From: a candidate division CPR2 bacterium GW2011_GWC2_39_35
Lineage (GTDB): Bacteria > Patescibacteriota > CPR2
Length of the DNA stretch: 64,000 nucleotides
Assembly (NCBI GenBank): GCA_000995065.1
Contig: LBWX01000003.1
Span: 153,284 to 217,283 of the forward strand
Reading direction: 5' to 3'
The translations under genes and the position numbers were made by a program. Of the stretch, positions 2,825 through 60,983 are shown in pieces. The notes beneath the pieces are model-generated. The model was not told the DNA's origin, searched no databases, and was given only the letters and a program-made list of their open reading frames with translations. The stretch's first letter is position 1. Each line of letters opens with the position of its first letter.

Positions 2825-5023
2825 TTATATATCATATTTTAACACCATCTTTACATCCAAAGCAATAACGCCCTTATTCCTCTCGTTAACTCTTAACGGA
2901 TTTATATCCACTTCCTCGATCTCGGGAAAATCAGTCATAAGTTTTGACAGCCTAATAATCGTGTCGGAAATGGCATCAATGTCATATGCTTCTCCGCCTC
3001 TAAATTCCTGGAGCAGTTTTGAGCTTTTTGTTTCGGCTATCATTTCTAAGGCTTCTTTTTTGGTAACAGGTGCGATTCTAAAAGCAACATCATGAATTAA
3101 TTCAACCATGATTCCACCCAATCCAAATACGATAACCGGCCCAAAAATCGGATCTCGTTTGCCGCCCACAATAACTTCCTGACCTTTTCTTACCATATGA
3201 TAAACCGTAATTCCTTCGATTCTAGCTTCGGGCATTTTTTTATTTACGCTAGCCATTATTTCCTTAAAGGCTTCTTTTACTTCAGTCTTGTTATTTAAAC
3301 CAATTTTTACGCCTCCAACATCCGTTTTATGAAGAATGTCCTGAGATGTAATTTTTAAGACTACCGGAAAACCAATACTCTGAGCTGCTTCGGCCGCTTC
3401 CTCCGTATTTTTAGTTAGCTGACTTTTTGCCACATTAACGCCGTAAGAACGTAAAATTTTAGCCGCCAAACTATCCAAAGAATCGCCCAAGTTAAAGATT
3501 CCGGCAACATGTGCCTCCCTTAAAAGATTATTAACTCGGTCCTTATTAATGTTCTCTGTAAGTATAAGATCGGTCTTATCTTTTCGATCTAGATATTCTG
3601 AATATTCAAACATCGCCTCAAAAGCCCGAACCGCCCTTTCCGGAAAATCAAACGTTGGAATTTTATTCTCCGCTAGAACTTTAACACCTTCTGAGATTTT
3701 CTTTCCGCCCATAAAAGAAGCAATAACCGGTTTTTTATATTTTCTTTGCATCGCCACTATCACCTCTGCCGTTTTTTTAACTTCGGTTGTTATTTGCGGC
3801 GTAGCGATAACAATCACGCCATCCACATTTTTATCGGCGAGAACCGCCTCGAGCCCAATCTTATACCGATCGGCCTTAGCATCTCCCACAAGATCCACCG
3901 GGTTATTGATACTTGCCATTTTTGGCAATTTTCGCTCTAAATATGCTTTAGTTATCGAATTTAATTTGGCAAGCTCCAGTTTGCTCTGAAAAATGGCATC
4001 AGCAGTCATGACTGACGGTCCGCCAGCATTGGCAATGATAGCAATTTTATTTCCCTTTAAAAGAGGCTCAAAAGCAAACACTTTGGCATAATCAAAAAGC
4101 TCCTCTAAGTTGTATGCTCTTATAATTCCGGCTTTTTTAAAAGCAGCTGATACAGCCGTTTCTGAACCCGCTAGGCTTCCCGTATGGGAAGCGGCAGCCT
4201 TTGCCCCCGCAGATGTTATCCCGGCTTTTAAAACAATTAAAGGTTTTTTGGCGGTAATTTTTTTAGCAAAGCGAATAAAATTATCCCCTTCGCTTATTCC
4301 CTCTAAATATCCCAGGATTACCTTGGCCGCATTATCATTTTCCCATTCCTGAAACAAATCAGATTCATCGATATCGGCTTTATTTCCCAAAGAAACAAAT
4401 CTCGAAAAACCAATATCGTTAGCATTAGCCCAATCTAGAATAGCCGTACAAACCGCTCCGGATTGAGAAAAAACCGCAATGTTATTTTTTTCCGGCATGC
4501 TTTGGGCAAAAGAGGCATTAAGCTTTTGGAAAGTATCGATATACCCCAAACAATTTGGTCCCAAGACTCGAATTTGATGGTCATTTGCAATTTCTTTTAT
4601 CTGTCGCTCCAGCTCTTTTCCTTTTCCGCCGATCTCCCCGAAACCGGCTGAAATAATAATCGCGGTTTTTATACCCTTAATACCGCATTGCTCCAAAACT
4701 TCCGGTACGTAAAAAGCCGGCACCAGAATAACGGCCATATCTACCGAATCCGGGATATGATGAATCGTCTGGTAGCACTTGTATCCAAGAATTTCTTCGG
4801 CTTTTGGATTGACCGGATAAATTTTACCCCTAAAACCGTATCTTTTAATATTTGCAAGCACCAAGAAACCAAGCTTATCCGGATCTCTGGAAGCCCCGAT
4901 TATAGCGATACTTTTTGGTTGGAATAATAAATTCTTTTTCACATAATGCCTTAAAATATAATTACTTTTGATTCGTCTCCAAAGCTTTAAACAGAAAAGA
5001 TGCTTTAAAATGACAAAATCCAA
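2825..5023 (-). CDS. acd: acetyl-CoA synthetase (ADP-forming), fused alpha/beta domains (CoA-binding + ATP-grasp)
   Basis: 732 aa; KSIAIIGAS CoA-binding N-terminus, succinyl-CoA-synthetase-like flavodoxin domain, C-terminal ATP-grasp; annotated start at 5023 may be too far upstream (overlaps inverted repeat). Confidence 0.8.
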   Translation of the reverse strand: MDFVILKHLFCLKLWRRIKSNYILRHYVKKNLLFQPKSIAIIGASRDPDKLGFLVLANIKRYGFRGKIYPVNPKAEEILGYKCYQTIHHIPDSVDMAVILVPAFYVPEVLEQCGIKGIKTAIIISAGFGEIGGKGKELERQIKEIANDHQIRVLGPNCLGYIDTFQKLNASFAQSMPEKNNIAVFSQSGAVCTAILDWANANDIGFSRFVSLGNKADIDESDLFQEWENDNAAKVILGYLEGISEGDNFIRFAKKITAKKPLIVLKAGITSAGAKAAASHTGSLAGSETAVSAAFKKAGIIRAYNLEELFDYAKVFAFEPLLKGNKIAIIANAGGPSVMTADAIFQSKLELAKLNSITKAYLERKLPKMASINNPVDLVGDAKADRYKIGLEAVLADKNVDGVIVIATPQITTEVKKTAEVIVAMQRKYKKPVIASFMGGKKISEGVKVLAENKIPTFDFPERAVRAFEAMFEYSEYLDRKDKTDLILTENINKDRVNNLLREAHVAGIFNLGDSLDSLAAKILRSYGVNVAKSQLTKNTEEAAEAAQSIGFPVVLKITSQDILHKTDVGGVKIGLNNKTEVKEAFKEIMASVNKKMPEARIEGITVYHMVRKGQEVIVGGKRDPIFGPVIVFGLGGIMVELIHDVAFRIAPVTKKEALEMIAETKSSKLLQEFRGGEAYDIDAISDTIIRLSKLMTDFPEIEEVDINPLRVNERNKGVIALDVKMVLKYDI

Positions 5024-5096
5024 ATTTCAAATTCCAAATGAAATCCAAATGATTAAATTTCAAATAAAAAGACTTTTGACATTTGGATTTTGTCAT
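5010..5096. terminator. perfect 16-bp inverted repeat (atgacaaaatccaaat / atttggattttgtcat) with ~55-nt AT-rich loop between PfkB kinase and acd genes
   Basis: arms at 5010-5025 and 5081-5096 are exact reverse complements. Confidence 0.4.
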
Positions 5097-5152
5097 TGAT
5101 TTGACATTTGATATTTGAGCTTTGGCATTAATTTTATTTTTCATTTTCCCTC

Positions 5153-6127
5153 TCACTTTACTTTCACTGCTTGTCTCGCCTTAAATAAATCCCTCTTACT
5201 TAGCAGCCCTTCCGTTGCTCCCCATCTTCCAACAACCGATGCGGCATTCTTTGCCGCTTTTTCGAGCGAGATATTTACATCTAATCCCATTATTTGACAC
5301 GCCGTAAAGGTCGAGCCAAAAGCATCGCCTGCTCCCGTCGTATCAATAATGTGCGAAGACAAAACTTTTTGATAATACTCCATAAAACCATCACAAGCAT
5401 AAGCGCCATCATTGCCGCAAGTTACAATTACCATCTTTGGACCAAAAGATTTAAGCTCCATTAAAAGAGATTTTTCGTCATTTAAATCTAGCTTAGACCC
5501 CGAGGAAGAAACTAAATCCTTAGCCTCCTCTTTGTTTAAGATAAGGATTTCTGTTTCTTTTAAGAAATCGGCCAATTTTTTATAACCCTCTGAAAGCTGG
5601 ACCGATCCCGGATTCCAAGCTATTTTAATCTTATGAATTTTAGCAAAGTTAAAAATTTGGGGGACTAGAAGATCGGATTTTCCAGTTAAGGAGCTAACGT
5701 AAAACCAATCCGTCTTTTTTAACGGCCGCCAATTGTTAATAACCAGTTCATCATTTGCCCCTCTGTAGTTAAAAATTATGTGGTCCTTGCCGGCTACTAC
5801 TATATACCCTAAAGCCGTATGATTTTTCAAAGTTTTGTTAATAAAGGTTGTATTGACCCCTAAATTCTGCAAATCTGAAACCATAGCGCTTCCGGTGCCG
5901 TCTTTACCAATACTTGCCACCATGGCAGCCTTAAGCCCCAATCTGGCAAAACAAACCGAAGAATTATGAGCCCCGCCGCCATAAGTAAAAAAAGCCTCGT
6001 CAGGGATAATCTTCGATCCATATTCAAAAGCGAGAAGCGTTTCCTTTTTGTTTTCTATAATCTCACCTTTACAGGTTTTACAAAAGATATCTCTGGTGGC
6101 ACCACCAATGCTTACCACGTTAAACAT
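5153..6127 (-). CDS. PfkB-family carbohydrate kinase (ribokinase/phosphofructokinase-like)
   Basis: 324 aa; GG di-glycine region and DTTGAGDAF ATP/anion-hole motif of ribokinase superfamily. Confidence 0.75.
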   Translation of the reverse strand: MFNVVSIGGATRDIFCKTCKGEIIENKKETLLAFEYGSKIIPDEAFFTYGGGAHNSSVCFARLGLKAAMVASIGKDGTGSAMVSDLQNLGVNTTFINKTLKNHTALGYIVVAGKDHIIFNYRGANDELVINNWRPLKKTDWFYVSSLTGKSDLLVPQIFNFAKIHKIKIAWNPGSVQLSEGYKKLADFLKETEILILNKEEAKDLVSSSGSKLDLNDEKSLLMELKSFGPKMVIVTCGNDGAYACDGFMEYYQKVLSSHIIDTTGAGDAFGSTFTACQIMGLDVNISLEKAAKNAASVVGRWGATEGLLSKRDLFKARQAVKVK

Positions 6128-28132: not shown

Positions 28133-28191
28133 TCAACTCTCTGTCTGATGTTCTTTGGTGCTTAGACTAGCAACATAATGTTTACCCCGCT

Positions 28192-28253
28192 GGGCAATGT
28201 GTTCCTTAAATACAAATCAACACGTATTTGTATACATTAAGGAACACACTGCC
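28192..28253. repeat. long imperfect palindrome / hairpin (26-bp stem, 3-nt bulge, 7-nt loop)
   Basis: gggcaatgtgttccttaaatacaaat ..caacacg.. atttgtatacattaaggaacacactgccc. Confidence 0.65.
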
Positions 28254-28275
28254 CGGCACCTAATCTTTAAGCAAC

Positions 28276-43999: not shown

Positions 44000-44980
44000 A
44001 TGAAAAAAACACTTTATTCATTCCTAGTCTTAGCACTCCTTCTTCCATCAGTAATTTTTGCAAGAGAAGCTAATGGAGAAGAATCAGGGAAAAATACCCC
44101 GACTCCAAGAGTAACTACTACTACCACCGAAGACGAAGATGTAAACGAAACTACTACTACAGCAACCCCGACTCCATCAAAAACAACTACCCCAAAAGTT
44201 ACTCCAAAAACATCAAAAGAAAGCCTGGAAGATTCCCTAAAAGCTTATAAAGAAGCAAGCGAAGCTAAAAAGCTTGAAAAGCTTAAAACTTTCGGCACAA
44301 AAGCGGTTGATAACAGAATCAAAGAGTTAAATAACATCATCTCTCAGATCGAAAAAAATAAGATGTTGGAGAGTGCTGACAAGACAGAACTTAAGACCGA
44401 CATCCAAAAAGAAATCGCAACCCTAGAAGCCCTTAAGGAAGAAATCACCAGCGCAACAGATCTCGAAACCCTAAGAACCTTAATTAAAAAGATCTATACC
44501 GATCACAAAATCTACGCTGTCGTTAAACCAAAACAACTGGCTATTTTAGCAGCTGCAAGAACAAAAGGCGCCGTCAATAAATTAGAAAATTTGGAAAAAA
44601 GGCTAGAAAAACTGATAGATAAAGCAAAAGACGATGGCAAAGACACTACCGCCGTAGAAAGCTATGTTACCGATTTTAAAGCTAAAACCGAACAGGCAAA
44701 AAGCTTAATCGATAAAGCAAAAGCTACTTTTAAATCGATGCCGATAAATGACCCCGCAAAAGCCAAGGTTTTAAGGGAAGAAGGCAAAGGATACCTAACA
44801 CAAGCTAAAGATCTTCTAAAACAAGCAGGCACCGATTTAAAGAAAATTATCGCTGCTTTAAAAACAGAAAAAAAGTCCAGTAATAGTAACACAGACGATG
44901 ACGATGATACTACTCCATCGACAACGCCAACACCATCTGCTACCCCAACCTCAACACCTACTCCAACAACGACCGAATAA
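44000..44980 (+). CDS. secreted coiled-coil protein with Thr/Pro-rich N- and C-terminal linkers
   Basis: 326 aa; signal peptide LLLPSVIFA, TTTTED..TPTPSKTTTPK and C-terminal DDDDDTTPSTTPTPSATPTSTPTPTTTE. Confidence 0.5.
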   Translation: MKKTLYSFLVLALLLPSVIFAREANGEESGKNTPTPRVTTTTTEDEDVNETTTTATPTPSKTTTPKVTPKTSKESLEDSLKAYKEASEAKKLEKLKTFGTKAVDNRIKELNNIISQIEKNKMLESADKTELKTDIQKEIATLEALKEEITSATDLETLRTLIKKIYTDHKIYAVVKPKQLAILAAARTKGAVNKLENLEKRLEKLIDKAKDDGKDTTAVESYVTDFKAKTEQAKSLIDKAKATFKSMPINDPAKAKVLREEGKGYLTQAKDLLKQAGTDLKKIIAALKTEKKSSNSNTDDDDDTTPSTTPTPSATPTSTPTPTTTE

Positions 44981-45002
44981 TGATTGCACTAATAATTCTA
45001 AT

Positions 45003-45031
45003 AAAAACCGCCCAGCAAAGGGCGGTTTTTA
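45003..45031. terminator. rho-independent terminator aaaaaccgccc-agcaaa-gggcggttttt
   Basis: 6-bp GC stem flanked by A5 and T5 tracts. Confidence 0.8.
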
Positions 45032-45094
45032 TTTGCATATCATAAAATAAATTAACCCAATTGCCACCCTTTTCTAAAAGCAATAGAAAGTATC

Positions 45095-45187
45095 TTTTTT
45101 CGTCATTCCCGTGAAAACGGGAATCCGGGAAAGCTTGGGAAGGAATGGGGCATCTGGATTCCCACCTCCGCGGGAATGACGAAAAAG
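45095..45187. repeat. compound palindromic REP/MITE-like element (outer 17-nt perfect inverted arms tttttcgtcattcccg / cgggaatgacgaaaaa with internal hairpins)
   Basis: direct reading; core gtcattcccg / cgggaatgac shared with second copy at 60923-60983. Confidence 0.65.
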
Positions 45188-45286
45188 TGGGTGGTTCAGA
45201 TTTAAGACAGTACAGATTTGAATTTAAGTTTAAGCACTTGATTTTTTTAACCGATAGTTTCATTATATATATAGGAGGTAATTATT

Positions 45287-45793
45287 ATGACGCATATTAA
45301 TTTAATGAAAAAAGAAAGCCAAATTGTAAAAGAAATCGAAAGAATAGAACCAATCCTGCAGTTTACTCTTTTTAATTTTATCTTTATCATTCTTGCCGAA
45401 TTTTTATCCAATCTAATAATTAATTTTACAGCTAGCCTATATTATATGCAGCACGTGAGTAATGTTTTCGCGGACCTTCAAGTAACTCACAAGGAAATAT
45501 TTTCTTTTTCGCTCATTAAATTTTCCATCTTTCTTCTAATAATATACCTGGTAAACCACCAATTAATGAAATATGTTAAATTAAAAATAAACCCGGAACA
45601 ATATGTATTTTCTTTCAGCGGCGTATTATCGGTAATATTTATTACGACAAATTTCAATATGAATCAGGGCGCCATGAAGAACTTTACCGATTTTAGCAGT
45701 GTAATTGCCGTGCTTTCAGTTGTAATCATTACTTTTACCGGAATCCTCCTTTCTCTTCCAAAAAAACCTAGGACAATAAGAAAAGAAGCTTAA
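45287..45793 (+). CDS. hypothetical membrane protein
   Basis: 168 aa; ~4 hydrophobic helices; RBS ggaggt 8 nt upstream. Confidence 0.5.
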   Translation: MTHINLMKKESQIVKEIERIEPILQFTLFNFIFIILAEFLSNLIINFTASLYYMQHVSNVFADLQVTHKEIFSFSLIKFSIFLLIIYLVNHQLMKYVKLKINPEQYVFSFSGVLSVIFITTNFNMNQGAMKNFTDFSSVIAVLSVVIITFTGILLSLPKKPRTIRKEA

Positions 45794-60263: not shown

Positions 60264-60884
60264 CTAAGTTTTGTGCTCGTACTCATGCCCAATCTCACGC
60301 GCTATCTCAGGCATTAAGATGTCGTGCACTATTTCTTCGGGTGTTTTGTCAGCAATTTCTTTATAGGAAATCGGTTCCAAGAATTTAACCCTACAAATCC
60401 GCTTTATTCTGGGAAACTTATGATGCCTTCCAAAAACGTGATGCGAATTTTCTATAGCTACAGGCAAAATATCTACCTGATTTTGCAGAGCCATTCTAGC
60501 CACGCCCCTATATGCCTTAAGCGGTTTTCCATCGTAGCTCCTGGTTCCTTCCGGGAAAAGAACTAAGATATGGCCTCTTCCTAAAACATCAGCCGCTGCC
60601 TGATAAACCATCTTCTTATCTTTACTAAAACGATCCACCTTTATTTGTCCGGTTATACGCATAATAAACCTAAAGAAAGGGTTTCTATAGATCCAGTCTG
60701 CCGCCAAAAAGAAAAGTCTTCTTCTAACCGCCGCACCAAGAAATGCAAAATCCAAATAACTCGCGTGATTAGCTGCAATTATAATCGGCCCCTTTCTGGG
60801 AATATTATGCTTTCCCTCAACCCTTTCTATCCAAAAAAGTTTAATCAGGGGGCTTAAAAGAATTTTTAGAACTCGATACAGCAT
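60264..60884 (-). CDS. plsC: 1-acyl-sn-glycerol-3-phosphate acyltransferase
   Basis: 206 aa; NHASYLD (HX4D) and FPEGTRS motifs. Confidence 0.8.
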   Translation of the reverse strand: MLYRVLKILLSPLIKLFWIERVEGKHNIPRKGPIIIAANHASYLDFAFLGAAVRRRLFFLAADWIYRNPFFRFIMRITGQIKVDRFSKDKKMVYQAAADVLGRGHILVLFPEGTRSYDGKPLKAYRGVARMALQNQVDILPVAIENSHHVFGRHHKFPRIKRICRVKFLEPISYKEIADKTPEEIVHDILMPEIAREIGHEYEHKT

Positions 60885-60922: not shown

Positions 60923-60983
60923 CTGGATTCCCGCCCCTTCCATCTTCGCTAAAGCTACGCTGGACAGGTCGCGGGAATGACAC
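60923..60983. repeat. second copy of REP/MITE-like palindromic element (ctggattcccgcc ... gcgggaatgacacg)
   Basis: shares ctggattccc and gcgggaatgac arms with 45150-45185. Confidence 0.6.

Follow-up and report, generated by a model that had tools for sequence, protein, structure and literature searches.

Two short palindromic elements lie in intergenic DNA of the window – the whole 64-kb stretch of CPR2 DNA that was analysed. The first, copy 1, sits between a stop codon at 44980 and a start codon at 45287, 62 nt downstream of a terminator hairpin (45000-45033; -20.9 kcal/mol, z = -6.4) with a U run behind it; 100 nt separate copy 1 from the next start codon. The second, copy 2, starts 12 nt past the proS stop codon (60996) and precedes plsC (start at 60884), the two genes being encoded on the minus strand. 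Each copy is located between co-directional genes. Copy 1 is also read through by a 101-aa open reading frame on the minus strand (44958-45263), which the first-pass annotation of this DNA had considered spurious. Consistent with that view, the reading frame is a gene call in no public assembly. Coordinates of the repeats and their parts are provided in Table 1.

The first-pass annotation had further placed both copies next to terminators. This was borne out for copy 1 by the hairpin at 45000-45033 but not for copy 2, in the flanks of which a terminator scan and folding identified no terminator-like structure. The consensus scan missed the clear hairpin at 45000-45033, and a negative result from that scan does not equate to the lack of a terminator; it reported no intrinsic terminator at either copy itself. 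On both strands it is an A run, not a U run, that comes after the copy 1 hairpin, which is therefore not an intrinsic terminator. Between copy 1 and the RBS of the next gene we also observed two 10-nt direct repeats, 16 nt apart (GTTCAGATTT and GTACAGATTT, 45194-45219), that might represent a regulatory or promoter-region feature.

Table 1. Positions within the window of the two repeat copies and of their component parts.
Feature	Positions	Strand	Description
Copy 1, whole	45096-45186		T5 - NTS(+) - 25-nt spacer - NTS(-) - A5
Left NTS/SRM unit, CGTCATTCCCGTGAAAACGGGAATCCGG	45101-45128	+	26/28 to NTS consensus; exact SRM pattern; nhmmer E = 8e-9
Left dRS3 core	45105-45124	+	8-bp stem, GAAA loop
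Spacer, GAAAGCTTGGGAAGGAATGGGGCAT	45129-45153		25 nt; counterpart of the 'RS' segment
Right NTS unit (minus strand), CGTCATTCCCGCGGAGGTGGGAATCCAG	45154-45181	-	26/28 to NTS consensus; nhmmer E = 6e-9
Right dRS3 core	45158-45177	-	Exact dRS3 pattern; one G:T in stem
Copy 2	60923-60983	-	Single NTS with expanded loop: GTGTCATTCCCGCG - 34 nt - GGCGGGAATCCAG
Loop insert of copy 2, CCTTCCATCTTCGCTAAAGCTACGCTGGACAGGT	60936-60969		34 nt; part of a second dispersed motif

No inverted repeat in the window is longer than copy 1, which reads, on the top strand, TTTTT-CGTCATTCCCGTGAAAACGGGAATCCGG-GAAAGCTTGGGAAGGAATGGGGCAT-CTGGATTCCCACCTCCGCGGGAATGACG-AAAAA. Its outer inverted arms had been described as perfect over 17 nt. 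They are indeed perfect, over a length of 16 nt (45096-45111, TTTTTCGTCATTCCCG; 45171-45186, CGGGAATGACGAAAAA) – the first pair further inward is T/G – and tolerating mismatches lengthens them to 31 nt, 84% of it complementary (45096-45126 / 45156-45186). The two internal hairpins that had been reported are both present. One has a perfect 8-bp stem (ATTCCCGT-GAAA-ACGGGAAT, 45105-45124), and the other contains a single mismatch that becomes G:T when read on the minus strand (ATTCCCAC-CTCC-GCGGGAAT, 45158-45177). As single-stranded DNA, copy 1 has a folding energy of -25.4 kcal/mol (z = -5.7) and can adopt either one long hairpin or two local hairpins; the corresponding RNA folds at -51.2 kcal/mol (z = -6.3).

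We found that the pattern ATTCCC-N8-GGGAAT, with at most one mismatch, occurs three times in the window against an expectation of 0.24. Its two exact instances are the two arms of copy 1, with none elsewhere. Tracing the pattern ATTCCCNNNNNNNNGGGAAT in the literature led us to the dRS3 repeat of Neisseria and to the study of Chenal et al. 2025 (PMC11893778). Approximately half of dRS3 copies lie within a longer, oriented sequence, the NTS (Neisseria Transformation Sequence; consensus CGTCATTCCCGCGMAVGCGGGAATCYRG), and NTS-like 'Ssn-related motifs' (SRM) are present in many bacteria, where they flank genes for SsnA, a 94-aa single-domain GIY-YIG protein (cd10448) (PMC11893778). The SRM definition allows a loop of 0-5, and in matching NTS the authors allowed one mismatch; Ssn homologues belong mostly to Pseudomonadati, yet are scattered over bacterial phyla (PMC11893778). 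The published SRM pattern matched the window once, in the left arm of copy 1, against 0.07 matches expected from shuffles.

To these pattern counts we added a profile search, in which an nhmmer profile of 258 arms from other genomes was scanned against the window plus ~18 kb of flank. Both copy 1 arms were recovered (E-values in Table 1). Copy 2 was matched on the minus strand as two colinear halves (model positions 3-16, E = 0.02; model positions 19-31, E = 0.14), and nothing credible was found in the scanned DNA beyond copies 1 and 2. The pattern and profile statistics exclude a chance palindrome at copy 1. The description of a compound palindromic repeat family dispersed through intergenic DNA in two copies was accurate – both are there, copy 1 far beyond chance – and, judged by their match to the published motifs, both loci are copies of the known and very widespread dRS3/NTS (SRM) hairpin repeat. 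What is new is CPR2 as a host for NTS/SRM, the repeat family itself being already known.

The individual units depart little from the family. In the left arm of copy 1 the two differences from the NTS consensus make up a compensatory C:G to T:A change of one stem pair, and in the right arm one of the two mismatches makes the stem G:T, and the strict SRM pattern fails there. The left arm carries a G two bases past the 3' C, a position at which 233/262 arms of other genomes have an A, and its N8 core (GTGAAAAC) is the fourth commonest variant among those 262 arms. GTC-ATTCCC...GGGAAT-C is kept in all three NTS units. These three units, at two loci, occur within ~84 kb, the shuffle expectation being 0.07 per 64 kb, and their density is far below that of SRM-rich genomes, in which hundreds are seen. 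The elements are visibly richer in GC than the surrounding DNA (34-38% GC).

Set against NTS/SRM of other hosts, the copies are near-identical in sequence, form a hairpin with a GNRA-like loop, have oriented flanks (5' CGTC, 3' CCAG/CCGG) and are intergenic, and the NTS-ssn-NTS arrangement exists in related CPR genomes. They differ in their host – a CPR2 bacterium of 38% GC with few copies in ~84 kb and no ssn nearby – in the T:A stem pair and in the 34-nt loop insert of copy 2, which falls outside the SRM definition.

Copy 1 also resembles the NIME of Neisseria, which Bentley et al. 2007, citing Parkhill 2000, give as dRS3-RS-dRS3 with an RS of 19-214 bp (PMC1797815). Two exact dRS3 20-mers surround a 33-bp segment in copy 1, a length inside the RS range, and GC, high in the dRS3 cores, drops between them; copy 1 thus has the structure that defines one isolated dRS3-RS-dRS3 unit. 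It differs from the Neisseria elements in being a single unit outside any array and outside Neisseria – NIME arrays were not observed beyond that genus by Bentley et al. (PMC1797815) – and in its spacer, which matches none of 131 spacers from composites elsewhere, nothing in ~1.5 Mb of fetched loci and nothing else in the window.

Neither locus matched an Rfam family at threshold. The sub-threshold matches near copy 1 stem from the neighbouring terminator, with the exception of a weak match to FtrB (RF02748) at 45080-45137. FtrB is an sRNA of Francisella that contains an NTS hairpin (published Northern probe, GAGATTCCCGCCTACGCGGGAATGAC; PMC3091763), and the shared NTS explains this sub-threshold match. 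The FtrB example indicates that NTS copies can be transcribed within an sRNA.

Copy 2 had been reported to share both motif ends with copy 1, and we find both of them, CTGGATTCCCGCC (60923-60935) and CGCGGGAATGAC (60970-60981); their order is unchanged, and they lie on a single strand with a long loop between them. Its RNA is no more stable than shuffled sequences (z = -0.85). NTS with comparably long loops occur at other loci (L055, from Falkowbacteria; L072; and twice in L223), placing copy 2 in a recurrent variant class. Ten viral contigs (L232-L241), their flanks unrelated, carry the insert motif, CTTCGCYAARGCTWCGSYGGACAGG, as does an Azospirillum MAG (L030, 6438-6462). It occurs only once in ~1 Mb of NTS-bearing loci and is therefore not normally tied to NTS. 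Copy 2 is best seen as a solo NTS that later acquired a second small repeat in its loop. The insert motif, approximately CYTTCCAYCTTCGCYAARGCTWCGSYGGACAGGTCGC, matches no Rfam family.

We next consider how the copy 1 design is distributed. An inverted-pair query (GTCATTCCC-N8-GGGAATC, a gap of 10-40, GATTCCC-N8-GGGAATGAC) matched at least 120 loci from many phyla in a collection of species-representative genomes, and 8 viral contigs. Among the matches listed, hosts include Alpha-, Beta-, Gamma- and Deltaproteobacteria, Bacteroidota, Ignavibacteria, Acidobacteriota, Chloroflexota, Planctomycetota, Nitrospirae, Omnitrophota, Atribacteria and Elusimicrobia. At least four CPR genomes carry the inverted pair: two Falkowbacteria, one Doudnabacteria and one Parcubacteria. 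The NTS motif is thus conserved across many phyla, far beyond the window.

The same survey provided 262 arms of other genomes in which the N8 core alone was free to vary. At N1-N8 the pairs are G:C (245), A:T (14) and G:T (3); at N2-N7 they are C:G (237), T:A (23) and C:A (2). The loop has the form G-N-A-R. The A:T variants account for 34% of arms in loci below 45% GC, as compared to 7% above. This clear compensatory variation supports a selected hairpin.

Spacers are in general lineage-specific, with exceptions. Ten clusters of composites share a spacer, and for at least seven of these clusters the outer flanks show no relation. Examples are two copies on one contig (L057) and a pair made up of a viral contig and an Azospirillum genome. 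Shared spacers with unrelated flanks imply copying or transfer of whole NTS-spacer-NTS units. Of 10 composite pairs compared from other genomes, none showed a target-site duplication. Nor is there one at copy 1, for which the first-pass annotation had raised the prospect: its flanks, gtatcTTTTTT and AAAAAgtggg, are an inverted T6/A5 and not a direct repeat.

The orientation of paired units might be expected to carry information, and a preference for the (+,-) polarity of copy 1 was initially considered a sign of a MITE. We dropped this argument, as the expected preference was not seen: NTS pairs in viral contigs comprise 8 with (+,-) polarity, 9 with (-,+) polarity and 25 tandem stretches, near a random 1:1:2 with tandem pairs somewhat in excess. 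A small number of families account for many of these pairs, among them prophages of the Neisseria type whose spacers contain DNA uptake sequences. The (+,-) arrangement is not privileged, and polarity by itself is thus no proof that a pair derives from an ssn cassette. Close NTS pairs occur in any orientation, as they do in Neisseria NIME arrays (PMC1797815).

A direct association with ssn is rare among these loci. A GIY-YIG reading frame adjoins the composite in 1 of 128 composite-bearing loci – that of Desulfosarcina widdelii (L138; PF01541, E = 3.5e-13), where it is flanked by NTS – and most NTS units are thus solo. A second cassette is encoded by a patescibacterial contig (L223), on which an ssn gene of the GIY-YIG type (5001-5285) is preceded by an NTS(+) at 4949-4973 and followed by an NTS(-) at 5288-5312. 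The 94-aa product (P0161) is a 67% identical homologue annotated as Patescibacteria, and the GTCATT ends of the cassette point outward, with the same polarity as in copy 1. CPR bacteria therefore carry the full NTS-ssn-NTS cassette.

This contig, from Hainich groundwater (L223, 1-10285), is very dense in repeats: it contains seven SRM-pattern matches of at least three subtypes (e.g., TGTCATCCCGGGCTTGACCCGGGATCCAT twice), and two additional long-loop NTS surround the cassette, which fits tightly between an amine-oxidase gene and a 615-aa reading frame whose called ends overlap the repeats.

Around the two CPR2 copies we found no ssn gene. A GIY-YIG motif search of six-frame reading frames yielded none in the window, tblastn with one Ssn returned only noise from the window plus ~18 kb flanks, and no PF01541, RAYT or transposase gene is among those publicly called in the window and the ~10 kb to either side of it. 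We likewise found no close relative of the patescibacterial Ssn in viral contigs.

The host population offers little comparative depth at these sites. The window's ProRS shares 99% of its residues with the enzyme of candidate division CPR2 bacterium GW2011_GWD2_39_7, and the next-best ProRS among 5.8 billion proteins shares 69% identity – the nearest relative outside the species, and the reason that alignable relatives are lacking. In a scan of metagenomes, all loci among the matches listed had a ProRS of at most 61% identity. Identical contigs are present in groundwater metagenomes from Rifle and in three NCBI assemblies. The species is represented by the assemblies GCA_000995385.1, GCA_001771115.1 and GCA_003500505.1. 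Copy 1 is the same base for base in every population contig that spans it, and is thus fixed in the sampled population, with no insertion polymorphism or empty site among those contigs; copy 2 is unchanged in all population contigs scanned for its 5' half. Two independent metagenome contigs (L009 and L011) end at window positions ~45059 and ~45037, i.e., 37-59 nt upstream of copy 1, which could reflect an assembly break at the repeat or hidden strain variation. A look for an empty site among annotated plasmids led to Cupriavidus megaplasmid copies that are orthologous and both filled, a third relative breaking elsewhere.

The biochemistry of SsnA provides a framework for understanding these repeats. 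SsnA binds the NTS hairpin sequence-specifically as single-stranded DNA and does not act on double-stranded DNA, RNA or the complementary strand (PMC11893778). Binding depends most on the C directly 3' of the palindrome, and cleavage – a few nucleotides upstream, on the same strand – depends on the three nucleotides 5' of it (PMC11893778). In Neisseria, SsnA trims incoming transforming single-stranded DNA and lowers the integration of NTS-bearing DNA (PMC11893778). Since GTC, ATTCCC, GGGAAT and the 3' C are kept in all three CPR2 units, these are predicted to be Ssn-type substrates when single-stranded.

We put at roughly 70% the probability that both loci are dRS3/NTS (SRM) repeats of a selfish kind, predicted to be Ssn-type substrates, and that they are either relics or served in trans. 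An NTS would fold into a short hairpin whenever its region becomes single-stranded, for example during replication, DNA uptake or repair. An Ssn-type nuclease would then bind the hairpin and cut a few nucleotides upstream; at copy 1 the predicted cuts fall in the left T run on the top strand and in the right T run on the bottom strand. On this view the copies are dispersed repeats of a selfish kind, carried along with ssn cassettes, and not host regulatory sites, copy 1 being an isolated, gene-less NTS-spacer-NTS unit. The sparse and slightly degenerate CPR2 copies may be relics of an invasion or horizontal transfer, or they may be served in trans by an ssn located beyond the 84 kb.

A bolder extension is that NTS-spacer-NTS is a non-autonomous, MITE-like form of the NTS-ssn-NTS cassette, with Ssn as the mobilizing enzyme and the CPR2 copies as its footprints. 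We entertain this tentatively, with the odds against it. The suggestion of a miniature transposable element in the first-pass annotation is fair as a description of structure, given an ssn gene between NTS in L223 and L138 and the recurrence of units, and it falters at the target-site duplication, which is absent. Classical MITEs such as Correia elements are likewise small and gene-less with terminal inverted repeats, and NTS units recur at unrelated loci elsewhere; NTS units differ in generating no target-site duplication, in having arms that are themselves palindromic hairpins and in that no transposase with matching ends is known for them. If Ssn did mobilize these units, they would constitute a new class of element – hairpin-ended, moving via single-stranded DNA, leaving no target-site duplication and crossing phyla into CPR bacteria and phage contigs.

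A further likeness is to REP/BIME elements with their RAYT and to the ends of IS200/IS605, which also feature short intergenic hairpins (often in inverted pairs), single-stranded DNA recognition and no target-site duplication. The IS-like analogy for NTS is already in print, Chenal et al. having drawn it to both REP/BIME and IS200/IS605 (PMC11893778). NTS differ in belonging to another sequence family and in having as partner a hydrolytic GIY-YIG nuclease and not an HUH/Y1 transposase, and NTS units are not known to transpose. To the IS-like hypothesis our survey adds that whole units turn up repeatedly at unrelated loci, with no target duplication, and that pair orientation is not privileged.

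The first-pass annotation had gone further, calling the repeats REP-like and proposing a cognate RAYT. Mobilization as REP/BIME elements by such a Y1 transposase strikes us as very improbable. The resemblance is general – intergenic, GC-rich, imperfectly palindromic elements in inverted pairs – but neither copy has a GTAG-type REP head, no RAYT, Y1_Tnp or other transposase is among the gene calls of the window plus ~10 kb on each side, and the near-exact match is to a different family, dRS3/NTS/SRM, with a different documented partner in Ssn. Less likely still, and close to negligible, is a role as recombinase target, in which dRS3 would be the integration or recombination site of a phage-encoded transposase or recombinase, as with Neisseria filamentous prophages. 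Such phages do use dRS3 as their integration site in Neisseria (PMC1797815), and NTS pairs are present in viral contigs. At the CPR2 loci both sites are unoccupied and adjoin no prophage, recombinase or transposase gene, and such phages are not known to infect CPR bacteria. We also dismissed a CRISPR, there being no array, and an attC site, the motif belonging to a different family.

The main functional rival would act on RNA, with the hairpins serving as a transcription insulator, an mRNA 3'-end stabilizer or part of an sRNA, in the manner proposed for REP elements. The lack of a U run after the copy 1 hairpin, the upstream gene's own strong terminator (45000-45033) and a copy 2 RNA no stabler than shuffles lead us to disfavor this role, despite the very stable RNA hairpin of copy 1, the position of both copies between co-directional genes, and the NTS within FtrB with its weak Rfam counterpart at copy 1. 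The sequence is moreover kept across phyla irrespective of gene context, its RNA form is not bound by SsnA (PMC11893778), and no Rfam family reaches threshold, and an RNA-level function thus seems improbable to us. For the mRNA-stability and DNA-gyrase-binding roles raised in the first-pass annotation, we found nothing in support. A more serious competitor is that the copies are inert fossils – NTS copies brought in horizontally together with a since-lost ssn cassette, now having neither partner protein nor function and persisting only because deletion is slow. The absence of ssn from ~84 kb, the very low copy density, the GC excess over the surrounding DNA and the degenerate traits (the right-arm G:T, the rare left-arm G and the copy 2 loop insert) are what such fossils would look like. 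We nonetheless consider this rather unlikely, as all three units keep every position reported to be critical for Ssn – GTC, the palindrome and the 3' C – and the two changes in the left arm compensate each other, which preserves the stem. The absence of ssn, in addition, covers ~84 kb of the genome alone.

Reading the loci as dRS3/NTS repeats places an orphan-looking palindrome within a family that has a biochemical partner, Ssn, and keeps it from being filed under REP/RAYT, as a terminator or as a 101-aa gene. It extends the host range of NTS/SRM to CPR2, alongside the full NTS-ssn-NTS cassette of a patescibacterial genome. Heavy reliance on DNA uptake is generally attributed to CPR bacteria. 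By analogy with Neisseria, in which Ssn/NTS modulates natural transformation, and as speculation, Ssn and NTS might act on incoming DNA in CPR bacteria as well.

Three minor observations concern other repeats. A low-GC viral contig from IMG/VR (L012, 35% GC) contains an NTS pair at 4718-4786, the right arm of which equals the left arm of copy 1 over 25 nt (GTCATTCCCGTGAAAACGGGAATCC). Its spacer and, in part, its flanks resemble a copy in an Ignavibacteriaceae MAG (L139, 4007-4075), a sequence likeness that hints at phage-borne spread of the NTS repeat. Within the window, the second-best inverted repeat after copy 1 lies at 5009-5031 / 5075-5097, its 23-nt arms (AATGACAAAATCCAAATTTCAAA and TTTGACATTTGGATTTTGTCATT) being 96% complementary with 43 nt between them. 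These arms are AT-rich and not NTS, and the repeat is almost wholly intergenic, its left arm overlapping the start of the reading frame at 2825-5023. A further inverted repeat, with 21-nt arms at 90%, spans 28189-28257.
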